UHGV virus genome: UHGV-1351408
Direction: 5' to 3' (one strand)
DNA: 64,000 nt
Source: a virus
Both the position numbers and the translations under genes were made by a program. Each line of letters begins with the position of its first letter. The stretch's first letter is position 1. The notes beneath the pieces were generated by a model that was not told the origin of the DNA, searched no databases, and saw only the letters and a program-made list of their open reading frames with translations. Below, one piece after another: positions 3,488-41,096 of the stretch.

Positions 3488-3724
3488 TTAACATCTCTCC
3501 CAAGTTTCTTTATCTTCTGAAGGTTTTACACGTTGCCCTTCGTGGTCTACCCAGATACATCCACAACCTTCACAGATTACTGGCATTGCATAGCCAGCTT
3601 TAAAGTCGTCTTCAGTGATAAGACCTTTTAAGTCACCTGTATCACGTCCAAACATTTCAATAGAACAATCTTTGCAGAAATCAGCCATGAATAATTGCCT
3701 CTTGAATGATGATACCTTTACCAC
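3488..3724 (-). CDS. Small cysteine-rich (zinc-ribbon-like) protein
   Basis: 78 aa with CKDC ... CEGCGC cysteine pairs. Confidence 0.45.
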   Translation of the reverse strand: MVKVSSFKRQLFMADFCKDCSIEMFGRDTGDLKGLITEDDFKAGYAMPVICEGCGCIWVDHEGQRVKPSEDKETWERC

Positions 3725-3908
3725 AACGACTTTTAAAGTGTTCTAATGGTTCAGAGATGAAGCCACGTAAACAGTCAGTGAATACTAAGTTCTTCCGGTA
3801 AGCTATCACATCATTTGCTGTAAATGGTATGACCTCATTTCGTCCAATGAACACCGCTGACCTGATAAGTCTCCGTGTCTTTTTATCTCTGGCTAGTATT
3901 ACTTTCAT
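3681..3908 (-). CDS. Hypothetical protein (75 aa)
   Basis: ORF in an operon-like minus-strand array; overlaps neighbours by a few codons. Confidence 0.35.
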   Translation of the reverse strand: MKVILARDKKTRRLIRSAVFIGRNEVIPFTANDVIAYRKNLVFTDCLRGFISEPLEHFKSRCGKGIIIQEAIIHG

Positions 3909-4779: not shown

Positions 4780-5045
4780 TGCTGTTTATTTCCTAATAAA
4801 ATCATATCAATAAGGTTATTAGCTTTGATTGTACACTGGTAGAATTCATCACGATAAAACTCAAGGGCTGCTGCCACATCACTACCGGTATTACCTTTGA
4901 TAGTGAATCTTGAATCTTCTTGAGTGTACTTGTCACTCTCACTTACTTGGGAGTTTTTGAATGTACTGCTCACTTTGTTCGTTGAACACCCTGACATAAT
5001 TATCAGTAACACAAACATTATAAAACTCTGGCTTAGTTTTTTCAT
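4776..5045 (-). CDS. Putative outer-membrane lipoprotein, o-spanin-like (Rz1-like)
   Basis: Signal peptide ending in the lipobox IMSGC; own RBS AGAGGT; starts inside the preceding ORF in the +1 frame (overlapped architecture). Confidence 0.45.
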   Translation of the reverse strand: MKKLSQSFIMFVLLIIMSGCSTNKVSSTFKNSQVSESDKYTQEDSRFTIKGNTGSDVAAALEFYRDEFYQCTIKANNLIDMILLGNKQQ

Positions 5046-5286
5046 ATGTTAGTACCTCTTTTGTATGCTTATTCTTAGCAAGCACGTCTTTCAAATCATT
5101 TTTGTAATTGGTGCTCAGTGTAACTAATCCTTCCTGATAAGCATCTTTAGCAACACTTATCAGCTTCTCATTGTTTAACTCAGCTTCAGCAACTTGGTAG
5201 TCTCTGTAAGAGTATCCTCCCCAGACACCCGCCCCAACTAAGAAAACAATTATGAAAGTAGCTTGACAGAACTCTTTAAATGTCAT
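4939..5286 (-). CDS. Putative inner-membrane i-spanin-like protein (Rz-like)
   Basis: N-terminal transmembrane helix (FIIVFLVGAGVWGGY) then a charged, helix-prone periplasmic domain; 3' end overlaps the lipoprotein ORF; GGAGA RBS. Confidence 0.45.
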   Translation of the reverse strand: MTFKEFCQATFIIVFLVGAGVWGGYSYRDYQVAEAELNNEKLISVAKDAYQEGLVTLSTNYKNDLKDVLAKNKHTKEVLTYEKTKPEFYNVCVTDNYVRVFNEQSEQYIQKLPSK

Positions 5287-5299
5287 TTAACAATCTCCT

Positions 5300-5330
5300 G
5301 AAATGAAAAAGGCTCCCGAAGGAGCCTGTA
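5300..5330 (-). terminator. Intrinsic terminator (GGCTCC-CGAA-GGAGCC hairpin)
   Basis: Hairpin 5311-5326 followed on the minus-strand transcript by UUUUUCAUUU. Confidence 0.6.
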
Positions 5331-5338
5331 TCTTAACC

Positions 5339-5803
5339 TTAACCGAGGACTTTAGCAAGGATATTCGCAGCCATCGAAGAAGCTTTTGCAGCAGCAACTA
5401 CGCCAGCTTTGACAGTGCTATCCTTAATAGCAGATACCGTTGCAGCATCAGTAAAGAGATAAGTGATTGTTTTAGAACCACTTGTAAAGGAAAGCATAAG
5501 AGTAGTTTCCAGATTGAAAGAGCGATACGGAGCACCTTCTTTAACGATACCTTCAGCACCTAACTCTGAAGCCTTACCCATATCATAGATAGTCATCAGG
5601 TTTTCTTTGTGTGCAGTCGTTGAACCAGCACCTTTTACGTGCTTTTTAACATTCAACAATGCACGATATTCACGAATGCTGCCATCAGCTTTTACATTAA
5701 CAGCACGAAAAATTTTACCTTCAAAGTTACCTTGAATCATTTTACGAACTACTTCAGATTTGTTTGCCGTAACGTCCAGTGCTACCGTGATGATATTGTT
5801 CAT
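5339..5803 (-). CDS. Hypothetical protein (154 aa)
   Basis: Track ORF begins at a TTG; first ATG at 5803 with GAGAG upstream. Confidence 0.5.
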   Translation of the reverse strand: MNNIITVALDVTANKSEVVRKMIQGNFEGKIFRAVNVKADGSIREYRALLNVKKHVKGAGSTTAHKENLMTIYDMGKASELGAEGIVKEGAPYRSFNLETTLMLSFTSGSKTITYLFTDAATVSAIKDSTVKAGVVAAAKASSMAANILAKVLG

Positions 5804-8325: not shown

Positions 8326-10692
8326 TTAATCGTAAATTGTAGTCCCTTCTGGAACACACTTCACATCAAAGCCTAAGAACTTACTCACTTCGATAGGTGA
8401 CACTTTATTCCAATCTAAATGAGAAAGCAAGAAGTTTTCTTGTTTTCTTTTTGAAAGATAGTTTGTCACCTTAATAACCATACGGTCACCAGCTTTCTTA
8501 ATTTTATTGTACAGCTTTGTATCGTTGTCAAGGCATTCTTTCAAAGTTTGCAATCTACTAACAGTGTAAGTGTATGCAAACGGTGCAGCAACGTATTGGA
8601 TTTTACCAAACATTGCCTCTACAGCCTCTTCATTACCTTCTAGGAAGATAGTTTTGTTTGTATCCCGTGAATAGCAATAACCACGAGAAATCTTCCTGTT
8701 ATTGAATGTAAAGTTTCTGGCAATAATCCAGCTACTTGTAAGGTCAAGAACACCATTCATATAGATACGTGTCATATACCTGTTATGATTAATCCAATGA
8801 ACATCAGTTAAGCTGTCGTTCAAGAGCTTCTCATCTACTTCAATCCAGTCTTCTGGTATCTTTTTCCAATTTGCTTTTCGGAAAACATATACTGTCTTTC
8901 CAATGACATTGGCAACTGACTTAGCTACATCTTCTGGAGATGAGCAAAAACATTCGCCATCAACTGTGTCGCCTACTGCCTTAATATAAAGCTGAGGCTC
9001 TTCAATCGTATCTAAGTCTTCTGACACCTCTTTGTATGAAGCTACACCTTCTGCTGGAACAGCTTTCCAGAGTTTTACAACACCTCTTACAGCTTCTTTA
9101 CGCTGATAATGGTGTTCCTTATCAGACATCTTCACAATCTTTAACAAGCTTTTATCAAGTTTGTGTAGATTGATTAAGTCATCTAACTCTTTTTCAGTAG
9201 AGAATACAAAGACAATACCATTGTATCTGTGAAACAGACTTGACTCACTGGCATAGTCTCGACATGCACCACGCAAGATTTGGTTGCGTCCTACAGTCTT
9301 CTCAGTACCGTTTTTATTGCGACGGTCATTTATAACAAACAAAAACTGTTCAATTTGGCTTTTACGCATTGCGCCAAAGATATTGAACATGCTTGCCTCT
9401 TGAGTGTAGGAAAGTGCTGTTGCACGAATCTTACTCTCTAAAGAGTTGAACTTGACATAAGCAACTGGTTCATAAAGGTAATCTACTTTAGGTATGTTGT
9501 TCCCTTTGCTGTCAACCTTAATATTACCTTTACCATCACGTTCATAAATGACTGAACCGTCTTCTGCGTAGATAATTCCACGACGAATGTTTAGTAATTC
9601 TTCTTCCAGAGAATCAAGCTTAACACCACCCCACTCTAGCTTTGGACACACAGCATTAAACATCTCTCGTGAGTTCAAACGTAACTCAGCATAAGCCTGT
9701 GCAGCATCCATGAGTGTAGGTTGGTTATTAACACCCTTAATAACGTCCCTTGTGATTGCTTCAGTTATCTTTTTAGTAGCCTCGATGATAACATTTTTTG
9801 TCGTGTCATTCATCTGCAATGCTTCACGAGAAGCTGCAATAGCAACTGAACCAATAGGCATGTAGATGTTTACAAGGTCTACGCTCCTACGGAAAAATTC
9901 TGGCAAGACTTTGAAGAAATCATCGCCAAGTAACGCTTCCATGTTAACTGGATAGGCAATATTACCCATCACCACATTAAACTCTGTCCTGTTATCGCTA
10001 GAGCGCCAACTTAGCTTATGAATCATGGCATCATAAACACCCTCTTCACGAGCAATGACGTTCATATCTGCTAATACATCGTCGTACACAATATTACTTT
10101 CTGGTTTTACAGCAAAGTATGAGTATACATTACCAGCTTCTTCAAAGAACTTTGAGATACGATGGTCAGCAACTGCTACACGTACAGCTAAACCATTAGG
10201 TTCTTTTGTTGGGTTAGTGGTCAGCTTGGTTACTTGAGGGATACCATTCTCAAGATAAACAGAGTATTTATTAACAACACCATCAACGTAGCTAGATACT
10301 GTGAATGACTGAGCAATCGCAAACGGTGACTTTGAACCGATACCCATTGCACCAATGTAGTCATTAGAGTCATTCTTTGTAGAAGCCCCGTAGTTTAGGT
10401 ACAAACTCATAACTTTATCATGAGTTAATCCAGTTCCAAAATCACGAACTTCAAAGTAAGGCTCAAAACGAGTAGGTAAATGCACATGGAACGGGATGTT
10501 CTCTTTTCCAGCTTCTTTCTGAGCATCTACTGCGTTACATGACAGTTCACGAATAACTGCCCTTTCTTTAAATGTGTATACACCAGAACTCAAAAGGCTG
10601 AACATTTCAGGTGTCATTGTAATCTGTGCTTGAGACGTCTCTAAAGAAGTTGAACTCTTAATCACTTCTGCGTGGTCGTTTACCATGCGCAT
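8326..10692 (-). CDS. rIIA: rIIA-like protein with N-terminal GHKL-type ATPase domain
   Basis: GHKL motifs ELSCNAVDA (N box), VRDFGTGL (G1), GAMGIGSKSPF (G2); 788 aa; strong RBS AAGAGGAAA. Confidence 0.65.
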   Translation of the reverse strand: MRMVNDHAEVIKSSTSLETSQAQITMTPEMFSLLSSGVYTFKERAVIRELSCNAVDAQKEAGKENIPFHVHLPTRFEPYFEVRDFGTGLTHDKVMSLYLNYGASTKNDSNDYIGAMGIGSKSPFAIAQSFTVSSYVDGVVNKYSVYLENGIPQVTKLTTNPTKEPNGLAVRVAVADHRISKFFEEAGNVYSYFAVKPESNIVYDDVLADMNVIAREEGVYDAMIHKLSWRSSDNRTEFNVVMGNIAYPVNMEALLGDDFFKVLPEFFRRSVDLVNIYMPIGSVAIAASREALQMNDTTKNVIIEATKKITEAITRDVIKGVNNQPTLMDAAQAYAELRLNSREMFNAVCPKLEWGGVKLDSLEEELLNIRRGIIYAEDGSVIYERDGKGNIKVDSKGNNIPKVDYLYEPVAYVKFNSLESKIRATALSYTQEASMFNIFGAMRKSQIEQFLFVINDRRNKNGTEKTVGRNQILRGACRDYASESSLFHRYNGIVFVFSTEKELDDLINLHKLDKSLLKIVKMSDKEHHYQRKEAVRGVVKLWKAVPAEGVASYKEVSEDLDTIEEPQLYIKAVGDTVDGECFCSSPEDVAKSVANVIGKTVYVFRKANWKKIPEDWIEVDEKLLNDSLTDVHWINHNRYMTRIYMNGVLDLTSSWIIARNFTFNNRKISRGYCYSRDTNKTIFLEGNEEAVEAMFGKIQYVAAPFAYTYTVSRLQTLKECLDNDTKLYNKIKKAGDRMVIKVTNYLSKRKQENFLLSHLDWNKVSPIEVSKFLGFDVKCVPEGTTIYD

Positions 10693-13444: not shown

Positions 13445-14326
13445 TTAATCAAGGTTTGCTACAGTAACTTGACCATAATGTGTTAACCCACGGTCTTTAG
13501 CTTCCCCTAAAGAGTTTGTAGTGTAGATATGGTCAATACCATTGTCAAGTAAGTTTTCAACACCTTTAGAGAAGATACCATGTGTTACATAGAGTTCCAC
13601 ACGTTTTGCACCTGCTTCACGAAGATGTTTAGCTGCCTCTATGAAGGTTCGGCCTCCATCACAAATATCATCAAGAATCATGACGGTTTTATCTGTCAAA
13701 TCAACATCATCAAGGATTCGCATACCAGTAATTTCACCAGTCTTAAGGTTACGCACTTTAGACATTGTGATATATGGTTTATCCACCTCTTTAGCAGTTT
13801 CTGCAATCTTCTTAGAAGCACCTGCATCTGGGGCTACTAAGTAATCAACCAGTGGGTCATTTGCATAGTGGACTGCAATTTCCTTTTGAGGAATACTCTG
13901 GAAGCAGTTAAACAGGTTATCTGGCACATAACTATGAGGGTCAACTGCACAGACTGCACCAAATCCCATTGCATTAACCTGTTTAGCAAAAACCTTTAAA
14001 GCTGCTGCATCACCTTTAAACATGTGACGGTCATATCGTGCATTTGGTAAGTAGTAGAAGATGACAGTCTTTAAAGCATAGTCGTGAGGAATTAAATTAT
14101 CAATTGCTTCTTTAGCAAGTGCCACAGCAAACAATGTGTCCTTATCATAACCTTTTACAATCATAATCACATTGTTGATGGATGATGCTGCATAAGCAGT
14201 AAAATCAACAAACTCTGGTGAAAAGTGCCCACCAATCTCACCAGAAGGGAATTGGATGATATTAAACTCTTCTTCATGAGTTCCTTTAGTTGGTGAATGG
14301 GCTATAACACGGATAGATGTTTTCAT
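13445..14326 (-). CDS. prs: Ribose-phosphate pyrophosphokinase (PRPP synthetase)-like protein; possibly an ADP-ribose pyrophosphokinase (Adps-like)
   Basis: PRPP-binding loop VMILDDICDGGRTF; track ORF begins at a TTG, first ATG at 14326 with GAGAGAG upstream; immediately upstream of NAMPT. Confidence 0.7.
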   Translation of the reverse strand: MKTSIRVIAHSPTKGTHEEEFNIIQFPSGEIGGHFSPEFVDFTAYAASSINNVIMIVKGYDKDTLFAVALAKEAIDNLIPHDYALKTVIFYYLPNARYDRHMFKGDAAALKVFAKQVNAMGFGAVCAVDPHSYVPDNLFNCFQSIPQKEIAVHYANDPLVDYLVAPDAGASKKIAETAKEVDKPYITMSKVRNLKTGEITGMRILDDVDLTDKTVMILDDICDGGRTFIEAAKHLREAGAKRVELYVTHGIFSKGVENLLDNGIDHIYTTNSLGEAKDRGLTHYGQVTVANLD

Positions 14327-14616: not shown

Positions 14617-15124
14617 TATAAGTTGCCCTATAAACTGTCTCGAACTTCAACAGGAGAGATATTGCCAAATCTGTATAGTTGTTGTCAAGCACATCTGGCA
14701 TATTATTTTTGATATATTTCTCTTGCTCTTCATAGGTCATCTTAGGTGTGCTTAGAAGGCTATCTCCTTGCTTCTGGTTGTCAAGTTTAGTCTGGATAAA
14801 CCAGTTTGCACAGTGATGTTCACCACCTTTTGTAACAGGTTTGTGGTGACCTAATGTGAAGGATTGGCTACCTGTGTATCTACAAAGCTTATTGAGCACT
14901 GCAATGGTGTTCTTCACAACAAGACACTCATACAGGTTATCTATGGTGTAATGTGGGTAATAGTGGAATAGTGCTCTTTCACGAGTACTATCACGATTCC
15001 AGAGAATCATGTGATTGGAGTTAGAAGGGTCGTATTGGTGGGAGTCAATGAACTCTTGACGTTCCTCAAAGCTGAGTCTTAGAACTGACATTGCAGCCGA
15101 ACGTTTCAGGTTTGACAGATACAT
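14609..15124 (-). CDS. HNH homing endonuclease-like protein
   Basis: HNH core GHHKPVTKGGEHHCANW; free-standing, next to the nucleotide-metabolism genes. Confidence 0.5.
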   Translation of the reverse strand: MYLSNLKRSAAMSVLRLSFEERQEFIDSHQYDPSNSNHMILWNRDSTRERALFHYYPHYTIDNLYECLVVKNTIAVLNKLCRYTGSQSFTLGHHKPVTKGGEHHCANWFIQTKLDNQKQGDSLLSTPKMTYEEQEKYIKNNMPDVLDNNYTDLAISLLLKFETVYRATYNG

Positions 15125-15134
15125 GTTGTCTCCA

Positions 15135-15165
15135 AAATAAAAAGGGAACCTTTACAGTTCCCTTA
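15135..15165 (-). terminator. Intrinsic terminator
   Basis: GGGAAC-loop-GUUCCC hairpin followed by UUUUUAUUUU on the minus-strand transcript. Confidence 0.65.
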
Positions 15166-15175
15166 TAGTATCTGT

Positions 15176-15496
15176 TTACTGAGCTACTTTCAAGATGCTT
15201 GTGAATGAAATCTCGCTCTCATCCATAAATTCTTTTGCTTCTCCAGTAACTTTTACAAAGTTATCTAGGCAGATAATTTTCTTATCTTTCTTGCTGTAGG
15301 TTAGCTTAACCTTTTCAATATCTTTCTTAGAGCTTTCCTCTTCATTAAAGAGTTTTACAGCTTCTTTGAATGGTAGATATGAGCCGTCATTATCGCTAAT
15401 GAATCCTGTACCACAATAGTAGTAGTTATACTCTTTAGCCATAAACTGGCACAGTACGAAAATCTGTAATTTACGAGTGTTATAAACTTTGCTCAT
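15176..15496 (-). CDS. Hypothetical protein (106 aa)
   Basis: ORF with ATG start. Confidence 0.5.
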   Translation of the reverse strand: MSKVYNTRKLQIFVLCQFMAKEYNYYYCGTGFISDNDGSYLPFKEAVKLFNEEESSKKDIEKVKLTYSKKDKKIICLDNFVKVTGEAKEFMDESEISFTSILKVAQ

Positions 15497-15498
15497 GA

Positions 15499-15765
15499 TT
15501 ATTTAGCCTTCTTGTTACGTTTACGGTTACGAGCTTTCTTAGCTGCTCGTTTAATAGCTGCTGCACCAGACTGGCGGTGTGCTTGTTTCTTACCACCTTT
15601 ACCACGTCCAACGTAGATGTAAGGCTGCTGTTCAATTTGGCTTGTAAGAACCTGTGCAACCGCTGAAGCATCTACACCGACCTGCTTTCCAGCCATAGAA
15701 ACAATTGCTGCTGCTTTTGCCAGCGCCTTCAAGAATCCAGCTTTCATATTACATAAAATTCCCAT
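15499..15765 (-). CDS. Small highly basic protein, possibly nucleic-acid binding
   Basis: C-terminus KRAAKKARNRKRNKKAK; the overlapping alternate-frame ORF 15480..15671 was not taken. Confidence 0.4.
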   Translation of the reverse strand: MGILCNMKAGFLKALAKAAAIVSMAGKQVGVDASAVAQVLTSQIEQQPYIYVGRGKGGKKQAHRQSGAAAIKRAAKKARNRKRNKKAK

Positions 15766-15780
15766 TTTTAGTCTCTCTCA

Positions 15781-16134
15781 TTAAAGTTTAATACAGAACT
15801 TATGAAGTTCTTCTTCAGTGATACCTATTGGAGTGATACCTTCTCTGATATTTTGAATCCTGTAGAAGTCTCCAAACTTGTCTGATTCATGAATGACAAA
15901 CGTGACATTCTTTACAATCGTTGCAAGAGCACATAATGAACGTGAACCAAATTTTTCTCTCGTATAAATCATCCAAGCATCTAACTTGTTGATGTCGTAA
16001 GTCCACTTACCAGAATAATCATTCTGCTCGCCATTGACAATCACCTTGCCATCCATACTCTTTTCTCCACAAATTTTGGTTGTCTGAACCACGATATGGT
16101 TTAACTGTTGGTTTAGAAGAATCATACTTACCAT
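15781..16134 (-). CDS. Hypothetical protein
   Basis: ORF overlapping the 3' end of nrdG in another frame; start uncertain (ATG at 16134 or 16125). Confidence 0.3.
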   Translation of the reverse strand: MVSMILLNQQLNHIVVQTTKICGEKSMDGKVIVNGEQNDYSGKWTYDINKLDAWMIYTREKFGSRSLCALATIVKNVTFVIHESDKFGDFYRIQNIREGITPIGITEEELHKFCIKL

Positions 16135-16504
16135 CAATCACCACGTCAACATATTTCATCACATCTAGATGAATTTTTTCGTGTAACTGAAAACCTGTCC
16201 AGAGCCAGATAGATTTTTCTGGGTAAACAGTTTTAATACGTTTACATATGTTGGTGACTTCTTGAATGTTTCTGTCATCAAGAGGCTCTCCACCAAGTAT
16301 TGACAACCCACTGATGGCCTCATCATCCATTAATTTAATGATGCCGTAGAGGTTTGCATAAGTAAACTCTTTACCAGCATTAAACTTCCAAGACTCCCTG
16401 TTAAAGCAGCCTTCACAGTGATGTTTACAGCCAGCTACGAAGAGGCTTATCCGAACCCCTTCACCATTAGCTGTGTCAAATGGTCGAATCTCCATGTAAT
16501 TCAT
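16019..16504 (-). CDS. nrdG: Anaerobic ribonucleotide reductase activating protein (radical SAM)
   Basis: Radical-SAM cysteine cluster CKHHCEGC near the N-terminus; ~160 aa; next to nrdD. Confidence 0.8.
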   Translation of the reverse strand: MNYMEIRPFDTANGEGVRISLFVAGCKHHCEGCFNRESWKFNAGKEFTYANLYGIIKLMDDEAISGLSILGGEPLDDRNIQEVTNICKRIKTVYPEKSIWLWTGFQLHEKIHLDVMKYVDVVIDGKYDSSKPTVKPYRGSDNQNLWRKEYGWQGDCQWRAE

Positions 16505-23920: not shown

Positions 23921-24236
23921 GGTATTTCTCCAAGTTTCTTTTCAGATATAGCCAACCATAGTCAGTCCTTTCTACACCCATAAAGAGTGGAGCCATCACA
24001 ACTTTACCAAAAGTATTTCTGTGTTGGCAGATTTCAAAAGAATACTCTTTCTCAATATCAATCCCGTATTTGTACAGGACTGCTTTTAAAACTTGTTCAT
24101 TGTCCAGAAGTGTATCTGGAGTCTCACCATATTTTTCTAGTAACGGGTCATTCATAAACACCGTCATAGAAATATTGTAGTTTGAGAAGTGGCTCTTCTG
24201 AGCCACGCCTTCTTTATTAATGTTCTGTGAATCCAT
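23913..24236 (-). CDS. Hypothetical protein
   Basis: First ATG at 24236. Confidence 0.4.
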   Translation of the reverse strand: MDSQNINKEGVAQKSHFSNYNISMTVFMNDPLLEKYGETPDTLLDNEQVLKAVLYKYGIDIEKEYSFEICQHRNTFGKVVMAPLFMGVERTDYGWLYLKRNLEKYRV

Positions 24237-24972
24237 TATAACCAACCCCTTTTAACCAGCACTTCAGGTTATTAGCATCATAATTCAGTTTCGGGTATGA
24301 GGTTACATGGAACTGCTCACCATCATAGTAGACAATATCTGCAATCCATAGTCCATTCTCTTTACAGAAATCTTTATCTGCTTTAGAGGTAATTGGATTA
24401 ACTTCTACAAAACCATCTACACCCAAATCCTTTAAGCTACATACAATACCTTTGCAGATAACGCATGTGTCAGATACTACCACAAAAAGTTCTTGGCTTT
24501 CAAGTTCTACAATGTATTCACCAAGCTGAACTTTAGGTAGATTAGATTGCTTCATAATCTTCCCATCGGATGCACGAACAATTGCATACCATTCTTTGCC
24601 ATCAACTACTGACATTCTGATGATACACTCTTGACCAGTACGCTTCTCAATATCTGCAAGACGTTTTAAAGCTTCTTCATAGTCATCTGTGTACTTCAGG
24701 TCATTATTATGGCAAACGGCTTTCATAGCACCGTTATGGTCATGTTGTGACAGATAAATCAGACCATCAAGAACATATTGCAAATCTGCCTGAGCATCCA
24801 GTGTCTCAATGGGGTCTTTCTCTTCAATTGCTTTTACAAGCTCTTTTGCTTCTTCAAGCATACACAGAGACTGGGATTTTAAAGATTCCCAATACTCATC
24901 ACTGTAAGGTTGCTTTTGAGTGTTTCCACAACGAAGATTCCAGTTTTTTACTGCTTCTCTTGAGTTAAACAT
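24217..24972 (-). CDS. Hypothetical protein; possible N-terminal MazG-like NTP pyrophosphohydrolase domain
   Basis: N-terminal LEEAKELVKAIEEKDP ... LDAQADLQYVLDGL resembles the MazG EExxEL / ELGDxL helices; weak. Confidence 0.3.
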   Translation of the reverse strand: MFNSREAVKNWNLRCGNTQKQPYSDEYWESLKSQSLCMLEEAKELVKAIEEKDPIETLDAQADLQYVLDGLIYLSQHDHNGAMKAVCHNNDLKYTDDYEEALKRLADIEKRTGQECIIRMSVVDGKEWYAIVRASDGKIMKQSNLPKVQLGEYIVELESQELFVVVSDTCVICKGIVCSLKDLGVDGFVEVNPITSKADKDFCKENGLWIADIVYYDGEQFHVTSYPKLNYDANNLKCWLKGVGYNGFTEH

Positions 24973-31621: not shown

Positions 31622-32434
31622 TTAGTGAAGTTGTTCACTAGTAATTTGTGAGTGCTCTTTTTCAGCCATAGCTGAGACTTGCTTCACAAAATCGTCACCA
31701 AAGTGAATGCGAAGCTTCTCTTCAATGATTGAAGCACCAATGTTTACCAAAACATCATTGATTGCTTGCATACTGACACCACCAGTCATCTCCTCAACGA
31801 ACTCAATGGTTACACCCAACATCTGAGCAAGTTGGATTAGTGCAACGATATTCATCATTGTAGAAATAGCTGGAATCATCAGAGCGACCTTCACCTGTAG
31901 TGGTTCTACATCAGCTACAGAATCATCTTTCACAGCTTCTGCTAAAGACTCTTTAGTTTGCTGGATAATCTCTCTGATTCGTGGGGTTAACTCTTCTACA
32001 CCCCAATCAAACTTTTCATATCGTGAAAGCTTCTCTTCCATGCGCTTCTCAAGAGCAGCCATAACAGCACTTGTTGATGCAATGATTGTATCAATAAGGG
32101 AATCATTATCCTGAGTCAGCAACAGTTCTTTATTTTCGTCTGACATCCTGATATAGTCATTCTTTTGCATTTCATAAAAAATGAACTCAGCAAGTGCGTC
32201 AACACCAACAGCGATAGATGCCAGAGCTAGTGGAGTGTCTGTCAACATCATGTTAACCTGTTCTGCAAAAGCACCGTTATCAGACTTGTCTTTAGGCAAG
32301 TTATAGCTTGCAGGCATAAACCGTTCTGTGTAGTTGTTTCCACGAAGAATCATAGCCATGCTTTCTACGGCATTGATTAAGAATGCTTCGTCAATACCTT
32401 TTTCTTTAAGCATTTGGTCTACAGTAGTATTCAT
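31622..32434 (-). CDS. Hypothetical protein (270 aa)
   Basis: ORF with ATG start. Confidence 0.5.
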   Translation of the reverse strand: MNTTVDQMLKEKGIDEAFLINAVESMAMILRGNNYTERFMPASYNLPKDKSDNGAFAEQVNMMLTDTPLALASIAVGVDALAEFIFYEMQKNDYIRMSDENKELLLTQDNDSLIDTIIASTSAVMAALEKRMEEKLSRYEKFDWGVEELTPRIREIIQQTKESLAEAVKDDSVADVEPLQVKVALMIPAISTMMNIVALIQLAQMLGVTIEFVEEMTGGVSMQAINDVLVNIGASIIEEKLRIHFGDDFVKQVSAMAEKEHSQITSEQLH

Positions 32435-32435
32435 A

Positions 32436-32858
32436 TTATTTCTCTCTCAGTTGGTTAAGTTTCTTTCTAGAGCATTTTAAGTTTTCTGATGAAGAAAAGT
32501 CAAGTGTCTTTTCAGAACGTGGATAGTAATGTCTATCCCAAGAAGTTTCAACATCGTTAATCAGTGACGCTAGATTACACAGGTCTGTACCACTTTGCAA
32601 CCTCTTTTTAAGAGAATCTAGTAAAGCAACTGTGTCTTTAGCTTTACGTCTCGCTGTAGCAACATCTTTCATATGCTCAAATACAGAGCATTTTAAGTCA
32701 TCTTCATAGTTTTCAGACAACTCTATTTCATGTTGTATATCAACCATTCTCCTGTGATGGTGAGCATATTCCCGTTGAGCAGCAATGTCAAGTTCTTCCA
32801 ACTTCTGCAAAGCCCTAACAAAGTCAGCTATGTCTGGGTGAACAAACATTTTCTGCAT
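32436..32858 (-). CDS. Hypothetical protein (140 aa)
   Basis: First gene of the minus-strand block, next to the divergent intergenic region. Confidence 0.5.
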   Translation of the reverse strand: MQKMFVHPDIADFVRALQKLEELDIAAQREYAHHHRRMVDIQHEIELSENYEDDLKCSVFEHMKDVATARRKAKDTVALLDSLKKRLQSGTDLCNLASLINDVETSWDRHYYPRSEKTLDFSSSENLKCSRKKLNQLREK

Positions 32859-33115
32859 GTAAGCCTCTTTTAAGTAACTATTAAGTTTTAATCTTTTATC
32901 TTAACGTATTCTATACGTTATACTTTAAAGCTTTTTAAAAGCTATTAAATAATCTTTTAAGAGTTTTAAAGTATCTGTATAGTTAAACTGTTAAGTAACC
33001 TTTTAAGTAAAAACCCACTTCGCAAAGATTAACACCTTGTCAAGTACATTGTCAACTTGCTTTTTATAATTTTTTGCAGTAATGTATGAGGTTAATGATT
33101 TTAGAGGGAGTAAAA
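32859..33115. promoter_or_regulatory. Divergent AT-rich control region between the two early blocks
   Basis: Palindrome TAACGTAT-TCT-ATACGTTA (32902-32920); three CTTTTAAG copies (32867, 32953, 33000); TTGTCAA direct repeat (33038, 33049); TATAAT at 33066-33071. Confidence 0.5.
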
Positions 33116-35815
33116 ATGGAAAACGTAGATTTTAAAAACTTACATTTAGTTGGTGATACAGAAACTGATGGTTTACTCCTTGAGTTCACTAAAGTGCACG
33201 TAATGGCTTTCGCAGACTATAAATCTGACGATGAAGAGCCACCTGTATGGGTCTTTACAGATGAGCCTATCCTCGGTCACAAGTATACCAAGTACATTAA
33301 GGGTGGTTTGCGTGAAGGTATTGAGTTTGCGTTAAAGGCAAAACGACTTTGCATCCATAATGGTTTAGGGTATGACTGGTGGGTTTTCAATCACATTGCA
33401 CCTGATTTGTGGAACTTTGATAATCCAAAGTGTAAGCCGTGGAGTAATTTCTTTCAGGATTCTCTTATCCAGTCTCGTGTTCAGTGGATGGATAGACCAA
33501 CTCCAAAAGGCTATAAAGGTGCTCATGGCTTGGCAGCATGGGGTGCTCGTGTTGGTGTCCGTAAACCAGAGATTGAACATTGGGGTGTGTGGAATGCAGA
33601 AATCTTCACTCGTGTTGTGGAAGATATCCGTATTAACGCCAAAACTAAACGTGCATTGGATAATGAATATCTGAAGCTAAAGAAGTGTGGCATAGACACC
33701 TATGAAACCTACATGCGAGCTAAAGAAACATCTTTCTGGATGAGTCAACAAGCTATCAATGGTTGGAAAGCTGATAAAGAGCTTATGGAGTTCCATGTAA
33801 AGGAACTTGACAAATTGACTAATGAGCTTGCTTCAGAAGTTGAACCACATCTTCCTCCAACTATTAAGACCAAAGGTAAAGTCACTGGAGAAGAGTTTGC
33901 AAAAGCTTGGAATGAGTATGTTGAAGCATTTGGTCATGCAGATGGACTGAAGAGAATTACCAAGTACCCTAAGACAAAGTATCGTCAACAGGTACGTAAC
34001 GGTGAGATGCAGACATATGAAATCAAGCCATTTGGTAAGCCAACTACAAAGATTTTTAACATTGAAAAGAGAAATTGCTATACACCAACCAACTCTGTAA
34101 CTGGTGAAGAGTACAAGGAAGGTTTTGTAGCAATGAAGGATGCTCGTGCAATTTGCAATGAGTTGAACGCAAAGATTGGTAAGAAATGCAAAGACTGGAA
34201 GCCAGTAAAAACAGTTAAAACTGTGAAGTACTATAACAGTCATGTTGTTAACCACTTTGAACTTGAGTCAAGTCGCTACACAGGTTTGATTGATGCACCA
34301 TATACACCAATTGAGTTCGAAGTTTCTCGTATGACTCAGGTAGCAGTTGTTAAAGACTACTTGAAATCAGTTGGTTGGATTCCAGATGACTGGAACTACA
34401 AGAAAGATTCAGATGGTCGTCCTGTTAAGGTTTGTCGCTTCAAAGACAACAAAAAGATGATTACAAAGCATCCTAAATGGCAGGAGATGGTTGAACGGTG
34501 CGGCTTGAGTTATGTTGAACATGAAGGTGTCCAGTACATTGAACATAACTGGTCTGTGAAGAAGTACACAGATTTGCTTGAACCTTGTTTAATCCGTACT
34601 TCACCAAAACTTACTGAATCATCTTATGATACGATTGAAGGTGAGCTTGGACAGAAGATTGCTAAGTACTATACTTTGATGCACCGACGCAGAACTATTG
34701 AGAACTCAAAGGATGATGAAAAAGGTTGGTTGAACCAGATTCGTCCAGATGGTCGCCTTAGTGCTGGCGCAATGGTGTTTGGTACTTCAACTGGACGTAT
34801 GACACAATATGGTATTGTAAACGTACCGTCTGGTGCTGCTGTCTATGGGGAACCAATGAGGGCAGTGTGGATTTGTGAAGAAGGTACTAACGTTGTCTCT
34901 GTAGACATGAACTCAGCCCAGCTAGTTCTTCTTTGCAACTTTATGGGTGACAAAGACTTCACCAAAGCGGTAACGCAAGGTAAAGAAGAGATTGAGTTTA
35001 TTCGTCAAGAAGATGGACGCTATTACTGCAAACACTTTGATGAGTACCTCAACCCAGAGATTGATAAGTACCTGCGCTATGACTCTGAGAATGACCTGTA
35101 CGTTGTCTATTCAGGGACTGATGCACATACACTGAACAGTATTTACTTTAGCTTGAATGATGAGCAGGATATCTTGACTTGTCGTGCAACGCAGGATGAG
35201 AATCTTCTTCATGAGATTAGTAAAGGTCGTAAGAAAGCTAAGAATGGTATCTATGCACTGCTGTTTGGTGCAGGTGATGAGAAGTTTGCTAAAACTATTA
35301 AGGCAGCCACTACTCAGGAAGGTGCATTAACTAAACAGACTTACTTTGTGCGTTTGCCAAAGATTAAGAAATTATTAGATAACTTGGAAGCTGACTACAA
35401 AGCAACTAAAAAGGCACTTGAAGAGGTGTTTGGTAAGACTGCTGCAATCTCTAAAGGGGGTTTTGTAAAGGTTGCTGGAGCTTGGTTGTGGTGTAAATCT
35501 CCACATAAGTTATTGAATTATTTGCTCATGGGTTCGGAGGCTCAGATTCAAAATGAGGCAATTAACCTGGCTTGTCGTCGTATGATTGACGAAGGCTTGA
35601 TGAAGTTGAATGGTCGTAAACCAGCTATTGGTGCTCGCTTACTCTGCGCATATCACGATGAAACGAGTTGGGAATGCCCAGAAAGTATGACGGCAGAGGT
35701 GAAAGCAGTCACTGACTGGTATTATGGGCAAGCTTCTAAGAACTTAGGTCTTAAGAAAGAAACACTTGTAACAGGTACTGGTAAGGTTGGTAAAAGCTGG
35801 CTTGAGGTTCACTAA
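33116..35815 (+). CDS. DNA polymerase, family A (T7-like), with 3'-5' exonuclease domain
   Basis: Exo I motif LVGDTETDGL; T7 gp5-like LCIHNGLGYDWWVF and AHGLAAWGARVG; ATG at 33116 with GAGGGAG upstream (track ORF starts at 33086). Confidence 0.9.
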   Translation: MENVDFKNLHLVGDTETDGLLLEFTKVHVMAFADYKSDDEEPPVWVFTDEPILGHKYTKYIKGGLREGIEFALKAKRLCIHNGLGYDWWVFNHIAPDLWNFDNPKCKPWSNFFQDSLIQSRVQWMDRPTPKGYKGAHGLAAWGARVGVRKPEIEHWGVWNAEIFTRVVEDIRINAKTKRALDNEYLKLKKCGIDTYETYMRAKETSFWMSQQAINGWKADKELMEFHVKELDKLTNELASEVEPHLPPTIKTKGKVTGEEFAKAWNEYVEAFGHADGLKRITKYPKTKYRQQVRNGEMQTYEIKPFGKPTTKIFNIEKRNCYTPTNSVTGEEYKEGFVAMKDARAICNELNAKIGKKCKDWKPVKTVKTVKYYNSHVVNHFELESSRYTGLIDAPYTPIEFEVSRMTQVAVVKDYLKSVGWIPDDWNYKKDSDGRPVKVCRFKDNKKMITKHPKWQEMVERCGLSYVEHEGVQYIEHNWSVKKYTDLLEPCLIRTSPKLTESSYDTIEGELGQKIAKYYTLMHRRRTIENSKDDEKGWLNQIRPDGRLSAGAMVFGTSTGRMTQYGIVNVPSGAAVYGEPMRAVWICEEGTNVVSVDMNSAQLVLLCNFMGDKDFTKAVTQGKEEIEFIRQEDGRYYCKHFDEYLNPEIDKYLRYDSENDLYVVYSGTDAHTLNSIYFSLNDEQDILTCRATQDENLLHEISKGRKKAKNGIYALLFGAGDEKFAKTIKAATTQEGALTKQTYFVRLPKIKKLLDNLEADYKATKKALEEVFGKTAAISKGGFVKVAGAWLWCKSPHKLLNYLLMGSEAQIQNEAINLACRRMIDEGLMKLNGRKPAIGARLLCAYHDETSWECPESMTAEVKAVTDWYYGQASKNLGLKKETLVTGTGKVGKSWLEVH

Positions 35816-38385: not shown

Positions 38386-38441
38386 TTGACATAGAAAATT
38401 TGGTGAGTATACTGAGCAGCATAAACCGACGGGTACTCACC
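38386..38441 (+). promoter_or_regulatory. Sigma70-like promoter plus stem-loop
   Basis: TTGACA (38386-38391), 16-nt spacer, TATACT (38408-38413); an 8-bp stem GGTGAGTA/TACTCACC (38402-38441) spans the -10 and the predicted start. Confidence 0.5.
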
Positions 38442-38443
38442 AG

Positions 38444-38712
38444 CATCACTTAAGAGTCTTTTAAAAGGGTTTTTAAGTGATGTCTGGTAAAGTATGGTTC
38501 TGTCCGGTAATGCGATGTATGCTATGGTTTGGTGTGGGTAGTTAGTCTCAGCTACATTAAAATGAGACTTACCTTTTTAAAAGGTCTTTAAGAGGGTCTT
38601 TTAATGAGGTGGGGTCTGGTTTGGTATGGTAATGCGAGGTATGGGTCAGGTGGGGTGAGGTGTAGTTAGGTCTGGTATGGGTGGATGGTAGTAGCCACAT
38701 TAAAAATCTACC
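38444..38712. repeat. Two tandem ~130-nt G/T-rich hairpin-bounded elements (units A and B)
   Basis: A 38444-38573: CATCACTTAA/TTAAGTGATG hairpin, C-poor GGTATGG-type run, terminal hairpin AGTCTCA/TGAGACT. B 38574-38712: CTTTTTAAAAGGTCTTTAAGAGGGTCTTTTAATGAGG head, G/T run, terminal hairpin GGTAG/CTACC. Paralogous to 39849-40114. Confidence 0.6.
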
Positions 38713-38770
38713 AAGTTTCTAAAGAGTCTTCTGTTGAGGGTTCTTTACAAACAACTTAACAATCAACTAA

Positions 38771-39828: not shown

Positions 39829-39855
39829 GTAGCCTCTTCGGAGGCTCCTTTTTAA
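39829..39855 (+). terminator. Intrinsic terminator
   Basis: AGCCUC-UUCG-GAGGCU hairpin followed by UUUUU. Confidence 0.65.
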
Positions 39856-40114
39856 AAGGTCTTTAAACAGGGTCTTTTAATGAGGTTTGTTATGGTCAGG
39901 TATGGTGTGGTGTTGTAAAGTTTGGTGCGGTCAGGTTAGGCTTGGTATGGGTAGTTAATCGAAACTACATAAAAATTCGATTACATCACTTAAGAGTCTT
40001 CTAAGAGGATTTTTAAGTGATGTCTAGTCAGGTATTGTCCGGTATGGCAAAGCATGGTTCGGTTCGGCAGGGCTTGGTATGGAAGGATGGTAGTAGCCTT
40101 ATAAAAAATCTGCC
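39849..40114. repeat. Two tandem ~130-nt G/T-rich hairpin-bounded elements (units B' and A')
   Basis: B' 39849-39982 shares the unit-B head and ends in hairpin AATCGAA/TTCGATT. A' 39983-40114 shares the ACATCACTTAA/TTAAGTGATGT hairpin and ends in hairpin GGTAG/CTGCC. Confidence 0.6.
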
Positions 40115-40133
40115 AAATAAGCTATAAAATCTG

Positions 40134-40162
40134 TTGACAAGTCAGGTGTTATAGCTTATTTT
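40134..40162 (+). promoter_or_regulatory. Putative sigma70-like promoter
   Basis: TTGACA (40134-40139), 17-nt spacer, TATTTT (40157-40162); upstream of the 40207 gene. Confidence 0.35.
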
Positions 40163-40206
40163 TATACTCAATGTAATACAAAATTTAATATAACTTTGAG
40201 GTCATT

Positions 40207-40591: not shown

Positions 40592-40804
40592 ATGGCTCTT
40601 AAAAAGTTACATCCCCGAAGCGGTTATGGTAAGATAATTGACGATACAGATGGCTTTACAGTCTTTACAGTTATCTGTCAAGATGATTCACAGATTGAAA
40701 AGGCTCTTGATGATTACCTTAACGATGAACGTGAAAAGGTTAGAGCTACAAACATAGATTCATTGATTGACACTTCACGTAAACGGAAGAAGAAAGATGA
40801 ATGA
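40592..40804 (+). CDS. Hypothetical early protein (70 aa)
   Basis: AGGTA RBS; lysine-rich C-terminus. Confidence 0.45.
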   Translation: MALKKLHPRSGYGKIIDDTDGFTVFTVICQDDSQIEKALDDYLNDEREKVRATNIDSLIDTSRKRKKKDE

Positions 40805-41096
40805 AGTTTTTGACCCTTATGCTCCACAAGATGATTGGGAGGCTGACAGAGAGGCTGAAATGGAGAGTTATGTTTGTCCAATGGATGTAGACGAAATGAG
40901 AGACTTCGTTGCACACCGTTTTAAGAAAGAGATTAAATCCAGAGGTCTTTCTCAAGAGCAAGTTGCTAAAATTTGTGGTATCTCTCAGGCTCGCGTATCC
41001 AACATAATTAATCTCACTGGTAATGTCTCTCTTGAGTTTATGTTGGAAGTATGTGAAAAATTTGGTGTTAATTTTAATTTAAGGCTGGCAGATTAA
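40797..41096 (+). CDS. Helix-turn-helix (XRE-like) DNA-binding protein
   Basis: HTH signature LSQEQVAKICGISQARVSNIIN; ATG at 40797 overlaps the upstream stop (track ORF starts at 40767). Confidence 0.55.
   Translation: MNEVFDPYAPQDDWEADREAEMESYVCPMDVDEMRDFVAHRFKKEIKSRGLSQEQVAKICGISQARVSNIINLTGNVSLEFMLEVCEKFGVNFNLRLAD

Follow-up and report, generated by a model that had tools for sequence, protein, structure and literature searches.

Several described systems combine elements of the kind considered here. In Bacillus phage phi29, the divergent promoters A2c/A2b and A3 are accompanied by p4 sites and by p6 coating, and the DNA is bent and coated at repeated A/T-rich protein sites, which set the timing. 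Arrays of short repeats are bound by small ribbon-helix-helix proteins in R1 parC/ParR (ten 11-bp repeats) and in the pSM19035 omega system (heptads), while the T4 oriF/oriG and T7 primary origins each consist of a promoter with an AT-rich unwinding element downstream. T4 MotA-dependent middle promoters carry a MotA box (TGCTTtA) 12 ± 1 bp upstream of the −10, in a phage that encodes MotA/AsiA, and in the lambda late promoter Q loading is helped by a −35-like word within the spacer. We set these systems beside a non-coding region of a Felix O1-like phage.

The window analysed (the whole stretch of viral DNA, 64 kb long) is a Felixounavirus (Felix O1-like) genome, 96–99% identical to many records, and the replisome genes of this phage are a T7-like primase-helicase and a family A polymerase. 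The region under study (32859..33115) lies between the start of a 140-aa ORF (32436..32858, minus strand), which is the first gene of the leftward dNMP kinase/primase-helicase operon, and the ATG at 33116 of the rightward DNA polymerase gene, as placed from the open reading frames and the annotation of relatives. It is exactly the intergenic region of Felix O1 genes 96–97, where divergent early promoters are assumed in the Felix O1 genome paper, which found none, and the divergent control region proposed in the preliminary description is supported. The same paper describes a genome without RNA polymerase or known polymerase modifiers, in which the replication ORFs (ORF 96 included) are transcribed within 5 min by RT-PCR timing. 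The searchable literature contained no transcription start, transcriptome, footprint or binding data for Felix O1-like phages, and no published description of the repeats reported below. On balance, we read the region as a divergent early control region for the replication genes, served by the host sigma-70 RNA polymerase and furnished with a leader of phased protein sites.

At 25.6% GC (vs 39.1% for the window), the region is the AT-richest stretch of the window at the 100, 150 and 250 bp scales. The cumulative GC-skew minimum of the 64-kb window falls within it, at 33056, though GC skew tracks gene orientation here and a minimum is thus expected at any divergent point. Compared with Suspvirus and Mooglevirus, the region retains 82–89% nucleotide identity, equal to that of the polymerase coding sequence. 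A hidden small gene was rejected, as the core of the region contains no ORF of 20 aa or longer and has 1-nt indels between genera; the 43-aa ORF annotated in pEC-M719 is probably spurious. An Rfam search of the window returned nothing at the gathering threshold and, near the region, a single chance snoRNA match (E = 0.4). The flanking 140-aa and 270-aa ORFs gave no Pfam or PDB matches. In PHROGs the former is of unknown function and the latter belongs to a family named “minor tail protein” (a name that is unverified), and the AlphaFold model of the 140-aa ORF (pLDDT 71) is a helical hairpin whose matches are generic coiled coils, with no informative fold match.

The sequence predicts a strong leftward promoter (P_left) on the minus strand. 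Its −35 hexamer, TTGACA at 33050..33055, is a perfect consensus that is invariant in eight BLAST-derived relatives, and a TGTCAAG word is also retained in Erwinia and Pectobacterium phages. An extended −10 follows at 33026..33034, composed of TG (33034–33033), T and TAATCT (33031–33026), at 18 bp from the −35; the pair thus has the sigma-70 form of TTGACA and TAnnnT hexamers 16–18 bp apart (here N18, with TG at −15/−14), and the predicted transcription start would lie near 33019. TA(A/G)TCT, TGn and the 18-bp spacing were retained in 25/25 distinct homologues, and the more distant phages phiEa104 and Arno18 have equivalent TTGACA-N17/18-TAnnnT promoters. The reference genome contains 26 TTGACA-N16–18-TAnnnT sites, mostly intergenic and P_left among them. 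This promoter resembles E. coli sigma-70 extended −10 promoters in its TTGACA, 18-bp spacer, TGn and TAATCT (T1, A2 and T6 kept), and the phage has ~20 intergenic promoters of this form, but standard sigma-70 promoters lack a second perfect TTGACA such as that found in the P_left spacer. This tandem −35-like hexamer (33038..33043, minus strand) sits 12 bp downstream of the first, an offset that is fixed in three paralogous promoters. The TTGTCAA direct repeat that had been noticed on the plus strand is present as described, at 33037 and 33049, but is actually the reverse complement of this tandem −35, TTGACA-N6-TTGACA.

Back to back with P_left, with the two −35 elements 1 bp apart, is a candidate rightward promoter for the polymerase gene (P_right, 33057..33085, plus strand), made up of TTGCTT (33057–33062), a 17-bp spacer and TAATGT (33080–33085). 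Its start would be expected near 33092; the promoter precedes the polymerase ATG by ~24 nt, and the Shine-Dalgarno sequence of that gene, GAGGGAG, occupies 33104–33110. The spacer keeps a constant 17 bp despite five sequence versions among homologues, and variation in the −10 is limited to TA(A/G)(T/G)GT; because the consensus match is weak (3/6 + 3/6), the call is tentative. The TATAAT to which the preliminary description drew attention does exist (33065..33070, plus strand), but it falls in the variable spacer of P_right and is probably irrelevant. Its distance from the TTGTCA words is 10 or 22 bp where 16–18 bp is needed, it is not conserved outside Felixounavirus (other genera have GAAACT, GTGTCG, GAAGAA and others), and a simple promoter scan does not call it; we rejected it as a −10 on spacing and lack of conservation. 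We also rejected TTGCTTTTT as a T4 MotA box on spacing and on the absence of MotA/AsiA: TGCTTTT at 33058–33064 directly abuts TATAAT (0 bp) and stands 15 bp away from TAATGT, no MotA or AsiA matches occur among the small ORFs, and the Felix O1 authors report neither protein.

Downstream of P_left, starting ~10–20 nt beyond its predicted start, lies a phased array of short words (32867..33007). The three CTTTTAAG copies reported earlier were confirmed at 32867, 32954 and 33000, yet the motif is broader than had been described: it is CTNTWAAG, in seven copies all on the plus strand, the others being CTATTAAG at 32878, CTTTAAAG at 32923, CTGTATAG at 32975 and CTGTTAAG at 32988. The array has an 11-bp periodicity (z = 12–17), although adjacent words are spaced 11–14 bp rather than strictly 11. 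The ribosome-binding region of the 140-aa ORF (32864..32874, minus strand; sense CTTAAAAGAGGCTTAC-ATG) overlaps the first copy. Array core positions 1, 2, 7 and 8 vary in 2/28 columns, against 31/77 spacer columns (Fisher p = 0.0008), a pattern that indicates position-specific purifying selection on the words. Conservation of the core extends over three genera, and the array can be recognised throughout the Ounavirinae, with the same type present in Arno18 and phiEa104.

Could such an array arise from nothing more than a low-complexity, AT-rich spacer in which short A/T words and palindromes accumulate by chance? We consider this very improbable. An 8-bp palindrome does occur in 18% of composition-matched shuffles, and the exact CTTTTAAG copies elsewhere in the window share no common context, most of them falling within genes, in terminator tails or near ribosome-binding sites. 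However, within the region CTTTTAAG occurs 3 times vs 0.06 expected and CTNTWAAG 6 times vs 0.20 expected, counts that 0/5000 composition-matched (dinucleotide) shuffles of the region reached, and other 160-bp stretches of the window hold at most two same-strand copies each. The words lie on one strand with an 11-bp period, the region is as well conserved as an essential gene, conservation within the word depends on position, and the palindrome has compensatory changes. The motif search that had been suggested for the whole sequence likewise found CTTTTAAG to be commoner than composition predicts, with 16 copies in the window vs 4.9 expected and 0/100 shuffles reaching 16. A general ribosome-binding feature was discarded as the meaning of the word, as only ~9/95 gene starts have anything similar, and by-eye comparison with IHF, Fis, DnaA, PhoB/OmpR, NrdR and TyrR sites gave no convincing match.

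The words are shared with other parts of the genome, though the strongest sharing is with loci outside the window and not with the G/T-rich units near 38590 and 39860, to which the preliminary description had extended the motif. Those units do contain TCTTTAAGAG and TCTTTTAAT/A, but they have no exact CTTTTAAG and few or no position-weight-matrix matches, and their words have a polarity relative to transcription opposite to that in the control region. Instead, paralogous promoter-plus-leader modules occur where the structural operon begins and at one early gene; in AYO145A the TTGACA-N6-TTGACA(AGGTGT) module is found at two other operon heads, with the equivalent modules at 24198 and 13453. 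P_left and its leader are collinear with the structural operon head, which shares a 35-nt block at 83% identity, has its first word at the same 23-nt distance, and contains further words together with a palindrome and a comparable ribosome-binding region; this paralogous ribosome-binding region, CTTATAAGAGGCATAC, precedes the first structural-operon gene of AYO145A. The third module, at the early gene, has the same build as the control region. In all three promoter-leader modules, word polarity relative to transcription is identical and the distance from promoter to first word is fixed. Words of this family, again with an 11-bp period, also fill a 1.5-kb ORF-free region outside the window that is bounded by convergent terminators and takes in AYO145A 15650–15760. 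The UAB_Phi87 paper gives no coordinates for the physical genome ends relative to this 1.5-kb array; the UAB_Phi87 record begins in the tRNA region. Among 2.9 million viral contigs, tandem CTGTTAAG-N3-CTGTTAAG was found mostly on Felix-like contigs of 81–94 kb. The proposal that a shared motif marks a common regulator or promoter element thus survives in part: the word is a genuine, conserved motif that recurs in further regulatory or non-coding parts of the genome, but it is not a single-copy promoter box, and forms an 11-bp-phased multi-copy array downstream of the leftward promoter.

Within the leader, the perfect 8-3-8 palindrome is present as first described (32902..32920; TAACGTAT-TCT-ATACGTTA) and could be a small hairpin or a symmetric protein site. 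By itself, a perfect 8-bp inverted repeat is not beyond chance in this region. The palindrome occurs only once in the window and only once in the reference genome. Across genera, two stem pairs are changed on both sides (C-G to T-A, A-T to T-A) and the loop changes from TCT to GTT, the Moogle-type variant reading TATGTAT-GTT-ATACATA; this number of double-changed pairs (2/8) is reached by 13/500 shuffles, and slid controls give 0–1, but the covariation is weak because only six distinct sequences are available. Hairpin energies of −5.8, −4.9 and −3.5 kcal/mol fall short of a stable fold, and the hairpin is absent from the minimum-energy fold of the whole leader, for which fold z-scores are modest (−1.9 and −2.5). 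Predicted single-strand folds are dominated instead by an imperfect inverted repeat (32920..32974) with 27-nt arms that are 78% complementary and carry near-palindromic CTTTAAAG/GCTTTTTAAAAGC/CTTTTAAG words; as it is almost invariant across genera, it yields no covariation information.

The partner suggested for these elements was the helix-turn-helix protein encoded at 40797..41096, which is a genuine XRE/HTH_3 (Cro-C1 type) protein, annotated as a transcriptional regulator in relatives. It was the only protein with a DNA-binding domain detected among the 65 small ORFs of the reference genome, and would be expected to bind a palindrome rather than direct repeats. That the palindrome is its operator, through which it represses or times the divergent promoters, is nonetheless unlikely. 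As in Cro/CI operators, there is a 19-bp site of perfect two-fold symmetry, whose half-sites are centred 11 bp apart, and an XRE-type protein in the genome; both have the same generic distribution, the protein being confined by tblastn to Felixounavirus, Suspvirus and Mooglevirus (259 records) and the palindrome being absent or degenerate in Arno18 and phiEa104. However, the recognition helix (ISQ[AS]RVSNI[ILV]N) hardly varies, whereas the half-site differs at two positions, and vB_SflM_004 pairs a Moogle-type protein with a Felix-type palindrome, so that neither helix nor protein type tracks the site variants and co-variation of the two was rejected. Unlike Cro/CI operators, moreover, the palindrome is one copy in the genome, where several related sites are usual, and it overlaps neither promoter (~100 bp from P_left, ~170 bp from P_right, and ~100 bp or more from either predicted −10).

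Two further alternatives concern the leader as a whole. It is doubtful, though compatible with a promoter role, that the region is a replication origin of the T4 oriF/oriG or T7 primary type, in which the promoter would fire into an AT-rich unwinding element, an R-loop or opened duplex would prime replication by the T7-like primase-helicase and polymerase, and the words would be iteron-like or unwinding features. The likeness is considerable: a strong promoter beside the replication genes, with the primase-helicase operon on one side and the polymerase gene on the other, is aimed into 160 bp of direct repeats and palindrome at 20–25% GC, seven same-strand 8-mers form an array of direct repeats, as in iteron-type origins, in the AT-richest part of the window, the GC-skew minimum falls at 33056, and conservation is high for non-coding DNA. 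Yet gene orientation confounds that minimum, no initiator gene could be recognised, the words, at 8 bp, are shorter than iterons (17–22 bp), and their position-specific conservation exceeds the needs of an unwinding element. The promoter is also of host sigma-70 rather than MotA-dependent or T7-polymerase type, and the AT-rich stretch is built of conserved words. With the same build at the structural operon and the early gene, there would have to be three origins, or the build is transcriptional. The array, being transcribed, also has a possible RNA-level role that is not separable from a DNA-level one. Array and hairpin might act in the 5′ UTR of the leftward mRNA (sense CUUWANAG), e.g., in antitermination or processivity factor loading, or in translational or stability control, and the tandem −35-like word brings to mind the lambda late promoter. 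Such a leader would explain terminator read-through in the long operons, which is left unexplained for numerous terminators in the Felix O1 genome paper, and it accords with the position of the array between the predicted start (~33019) and the start codon (32858), with the constant polarity and promoter distance of words in the three modules and with the two compensatory pairs of the hairpin. We nevertheless hold it distinctly unlikely, since the same words, at an 11-bp helical period, fill a 1.5-kb region between convergent terminators that is unlikely to be much transcribed, the fold statistics are modest, the hairpin is weak and missing from the leader's minimum-energy fold, and there is no Rfam match.

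We therefore return to the divergent early control region with a phased leader, which builds on the elements, statistics, periodicity, conservation and paralogous modules described above and on the early transcription of the flanking genes in the literature. In this model, the strong leftward promoter (TTGACA-N18-TAATCT with TGn, and a second TTGACA 12 bp downstream) would drive the replication operon, and the weaker rightward TTGCTT-N17-TAATGT would drive the polymerase gene. The leftward transcript, from ~33019, would cross the ~160-bp leader before reaching the first gene. The CTNTWAAG words would be putative sites of a DNA-binding protein aligned along one helix face, which may tune or time expression of the operon, and the 8-3-8 palindrome would be an added symmetric element, acting as a nucleic-acid hairpin or as a site for a dimer. 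The transcription starts, protein binding of the words, the identity of the binder and the direction of its regulatory effect belong to the inferred part of the model. The model resembles phi29 in its short AT-rich region between divergent operons and its back-to-back promoters of host sigma-A/sigma-70 type; the likeness extends to protein sites only through the repeated words, whose binding is putative, and phi29 differs in having inverted CTTTTT-N15-AAAATG sites rather than direct 8-mers at an 11-bp period, and p4 and p6, of which no homologues were found in the Felix-like phage. The ParR and omega arrays are alike in their many short, same-orientation repeats, about one helical turn apart and at or beside a promoter, and in the reuse of the repeat across the replicon, a large array included. 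Here, however, the word sequence is unrelated, no ribbon-helix-helix or ParR-like domain was detected among the 65 small ORFs of the reference genome (a search that sequence-undetectable proteins could escape), and partition is of no obvious use to a lytic phage.

A broader reading, which we offer tentatively as possible, is that CTNTWAAG words are sites of a phage or host protein that polymerises on 11-bp-phased arrays and occupies two kinds of site, i.e., the leaders of a small class of tandem-TTGACA promoters (replication operon, structural operon and one early gene) and the 1.5-kb array of ~50 sites between convergent operons. If true, such a binder would link transcription timing to genome architecture, be it the start of replication, packaging or protection of the ends.

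Typing of Salmonella and E. coli, biocontrol and therapy all make wide use of Felix O1-like phages, yet the genome paper accounts neither for the promoters at this locus nor for terminator read-through or the temporal programme, and the family has no known polymerase-modifying factor or mechanism of timing. The analysis adds a conserved leftward sigma-70 promoter that had previously been missed, a promoter class with a tandem −35, and a conserved, phased word array common to three operon heads and a large non-coding array. If the words are protein-bound, their binder would be the family's first candidate for a timing or architectural factor, and the region would also be a compact regulatory part for the engineering of Felix O1-like phages. 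Were it a promoter-driven origin instead, replication initiation would have been located.

By sequence similarity, the window is assigned to a Felix O1-like myovirus of the genus Felixounavirus (Ounavirinae). Nucleotide database comparison of 32000–34500 returned >250 phage records at 96–99% identity, together with lower-identity matches in Suspvirus, Mooglevirus, Erwinia and Pectobacterium relatives. Two records with a Felix O1-like locus (96–98% identity) are named Staphylococcus phage SA1 (GU169904.1) and Campylobacter phage A132 (MG065664.1); these are probably mislabeled or contaminated. The AT-rich stretch studied here (32859–33115) is the gap separating two transcription units. The leftward unit opens with a 140-aa ORF (32436..32858, minus), followed by a 270-aa ORF, dNMP kinase, a 66-aa ORF and primase/helicase, and the DNA polymerase gene, with its ATG at 33116, heads the rightward unit. 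Many records, and PHROGs as well (phrog_4251), call the 270-aa ORF (31622–32434, minus) a “minor tail protein”, an annotation that looks doubtful; the ORF matches nothing in Pfam or PDB and has the control region on one side and the dNMP kinase and primase genes on the other. In relatives, HNH homing endonuclease genes sit either between control region and polymerase gene (Erwinia phage phiEa104, 1333–1809; Salmonella phage PMBT37, 1379–1858) or directly after the latter (Michonne, 3220–3732; SUSP1, 5004–5531), and the locus is therefore an insertion hot spot.

A divergent phage early control region is an ordinary kind of element, and the literature had already assumed one here. The Felix O1 genome paper treats the stretch as the gene 96–97 intergenic region, where divergent promoters were assumed to launch early transcription and no sigma-70-like sequence was found; the phage was described as without an RNA polymerase or known polymerase modifiers, and its temporal control and terminator read-through were termed unexplained. 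RT-PCR of Felix O1 detected replication ORFs, ORF 96 included, within 5 min. A literature search for mapped transcription starts or transcriptomes in the Felix O1-like group found none.

The preliminary description of this gap held overall as an observation, with every literal feature (palindrome, repeated words, TTGTCAA direct repeat, TATAAT) where it had been placed, though some acquire a different meaning. On the minus strand, the TTGTCAA repeat becomes a pair of perfect -35 hexamers with a 12-bp offset (TTGACA-ATGTAC-TTGACA, 33055–33038), and 18 bp past the first of these lies an extended -10 (TAATCT, 33031–33026, minus) with TG at -15/-14. The hexamers, TGn, TA(A/G)TCT and spacing are kept in 25/25 homologues, the more distant phages phiEa104 and Arno18 have TTGACA-N18-TACATT and TTGACA-N17-TAGGCT in the same place, and the site is among 26 TTGACA-N16-18-TAnnnT sites, mostly intergenic, in the whole reference genome AYO145A. 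On these grounds we consider the predicted leftward promoter well supported; transcription from it would start near 33019. The rightward promoter is more tentative and weak by consensus: the best candidate for the polymerase gene is TTGCTT (33057–33062, plus), a 17-bp spacer and TAATGT (33080–33085), where the spacer occurs across genera in five sequence versions yet always at 17 bp, and -10 variation is limited to TA(A/G)(T/G)GT. The TATAAT, by comparison, lies 10 or 22 bp from the two TTGTCA words, within sequence that no other genus shares. The AYO145A record annotates two in silico promoters here (3 mismatches each), neither coinciding with our sites. Elsewhere, in the operon with the gene for an HTH_3 (XRE-type) protein, the promoter region (40130–40175) reads TTGACAAGTCAGGTGTTATAGCTTATTTTTATACT and has TTGACAAG...GGTGTTA in common with the leftward promoter.

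The repeated word CTTTTAAG is enriched in the window (16 vs. 4.9 expected) and in the control region (3 vs. 0.06 expected), where none of 5000 dinucleotide shuffles of the 258-bp region itself—a fair control at 25.6% GC—reached three. The motif is nonetheless a broader, phased family. In relatives, CTTTTAAG is replaced by CTGTTAAG, CTATTAAG, CTGTAAAG, CTATAAAG or CTTTATAG, and a motif scan with the broadened definition CTNTWAAG/CTNTWWAG finds seven words, all on the plus strand (32867, 32878, 32923, 32954, 32975, 32988, 33000), compared with two or three at most in other 160-bp stretches of the window. This count was matched in 0/5000 composition-matched shuffles, and the words follow an 11-bp period (z = 12–17 vs. 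shuffles). Among 25 distinct homologues (three genera), variable columns number 2/28 at word positions 1, 2, 7, and 8, 8/28 at positions 3–6 and 31/77 in spacers (core vs. spacer, Fisher p = 0.0008), in agreement with a matrix trained on other parts of the genome, whose information profile reads C, T, K, T, W, W, A, G. Intergenic identity between genera (82–89%) is on par with that of the polymerase coding sequence (84–85%), and the adjacent 140-aa ORF is less conserved (68–78%). In Pectobacterium phage Arno18 and Erwinia phage phiEa104, where the control-region nucleotide sequence is beyond alignment, CTGTTAAG/CTTTAAAG-type words, five or six in number and stepped by 12–14 bp, occupy the same place and are followed by a TGTCAAG word.

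The same build recurs in the genome outside the window. The leftward promoter and its leader (the ~160 bp up to the 140-aa ORF) are collinear with the AYO145A region upstream of gp045, the first structural-unit gene (“P41” region in the Felix O1 paper). The two share a 35-nt block (TAAAAAG...TTGACAA.G.ACTTGACAAGGTGT, 83% identical) and a first word, ACTTAAAAGGTT upstream of gp045, at the same 23-nt distance; beyond it follow same-polarity words, a palindrome of 7 bp, 14 identical nt in inverted orientation and a ribosome-binding region that is similar as well. This paralogous structural-operon head (AYO145A 23956–24347) has a palindrome of its own, AGATATC-TTTCTG-GATATCT, and 11 nt past its second TTGACA stands TATAAATA, the T4 late-promoter word. 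A third module, before an early gene (AYO145A 13453), comprises TTGACA-N6-TTGACA, TGG-TAACTT, GGGGGTTTATCTAAAAGG and more words. Tandem or triple TTGACA-like words in 12-bp steps occur in this third module (AYO145A 13453–13640) and, in the window, at 13531–13560 (minus), where the ribose-phosphate pyrophosphokinase gene ends, upstream of the NAMPT gene.

The word family also fills an ORF-free 1.5 kb between two convergent terminators (AYO145A 14880–16360), with ~50 copies of CTTGTTAG/CTGTTAAG/TTGTTAAG/CTATAAAG, an 11-bp period (z up to 29) and a polarity switch near the middle (~15320). Terminal repeats of ~0.6 kb at the physical genome ends are reported, without coordinates, for UAB_Phi87. 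Among 2.9 million viral contigs, tandem CTGTTAAG-N3-CTGTTAAG is found on 40, ~25 of them Felix-like (81–94 kb; Mooglevirus and Suspvirus included). An element shared across regulatory regions had been proposed, and in substance this is right and stronger than was visible from the window, but the element is an array and not a promoter box. Its suggested recurrence at G/T-rich units is approximate: the units contain TCTTTAAGAG and TCTTTTAAT/A, but exact CTTTTAAG is absent and matrix hits are few or none. By alignment these units number four, of ~135–145 nt each (38440–38716 and 39846–40118), with a body of 5-nt GGTNN periodicity, many GTC/GGTC words, and a terminal hairpin whose loop (~CTACATTAAAA) is conserved and whose stems are unlike between units yet complementary. 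A consensus promoter (TTGACA at 38386, N16, TATACT at 38408–38413) lies ~30 nt upstream of the start of the first unit; the units belong to no Rfam family and probably represent either non-coding transcripts or a DNA element.

The palindrome alone is unremarkable, since 18% of dinucleotide shuffles of the control region hold an 8-bp perfect inverted repeat; it occurs once in the window and once in AYO145A. Among the relatives compared it takes four forms: TAACGTAT-TCT-ATACGTTA in Felixounavirus, TACGTAT-TCT-ATACGTA in Suspvirus and ESh21-type phages, an 8-bp form in pEC-M719, and TATGTAT-GTT-ATACATA in Moogle, Sf14 and Michonne. Both sides of the stem change at two positions (C-G to T-A; A-T to T-A), as does the loop, a result reached by 13/500 shuffles (slid controls, 0–1), which argues that the symmetry is under selection. 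It may act as a hairpin or as a dimer site; hairpin stability is low (-3.5 to -5.8 kcal/mol), and the minimum-energy fold of the whole leader does not include the hairpin. The HTH_3 protein (40797..41096) put forward as its partner is genuine (E = 5e-11) and, by tblastn, is found only in the three genera that carry the palindrome. Its recognition helix, however, is near-invariant, and Shigella phage vB_SflM_004, a mosaic, pairs a control region identical to the Felixounavirus type, palindrome included (1–400), with a Mooglevirus-type regulator (8615–8914); thus there is no evidence of co-evolution. The palindrome also overlaps no promoter.

Together, the best-supported reading is a divergent early control region served by host RNA polymerase, and the preliminary interpretation is partly supported. 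Back-to-back promoters would launch early transcription both ways, and the leftward transcript would traverse a leader whose conserved words lie on one face of the helix (11 bp). Most simply, by analogy, such phased arrays would be sites at which a putative protein coats or bends the DNA, with expression damped, timed or coupled as a result. The phi29 proteins p4/p6 and the ParR or omega arrays at promoters are comparison systems for such proteins, the former resembling the proposed coating or bending and the latter an array beside a promoter. A search for such a protein among 65 small ORFs of the reference genome gave no candidate; the HTH_3 protein alone has a recognizable DNA-binding domain, and the ORFs neighboring the control region are uninformative as to a binder.

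A replication origin of T4 oriF/G-like or T7-like type, i.e., a promoter with an AT-rich unwinding element, also fits a site that lies between replisome genes and is the window's most AT-rich stretch at 100, 150, and 250 bp. The cumulative GC-skew minimum of the 64-kb window falls at 33056, exactly on the back-to-back -35 elements, but gene orientation confounds this signal, and the recurrence of the build at the head of two other operons speaks for a role in transcription. Action of the leader at the RNA level (e.g., antitermination-factor loading) fits a word polarity that is constant and a first word at fixed distance, yet leaves both the helical period and the 1.5-kb array between terminators unexplained.

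To our knowledge, the concrete promoters, the tandem -35 promoter class and the genome-shared phased CTNTWAAG array are previously undescribed, and they make the question of Felix O1 gene timing directly testable.
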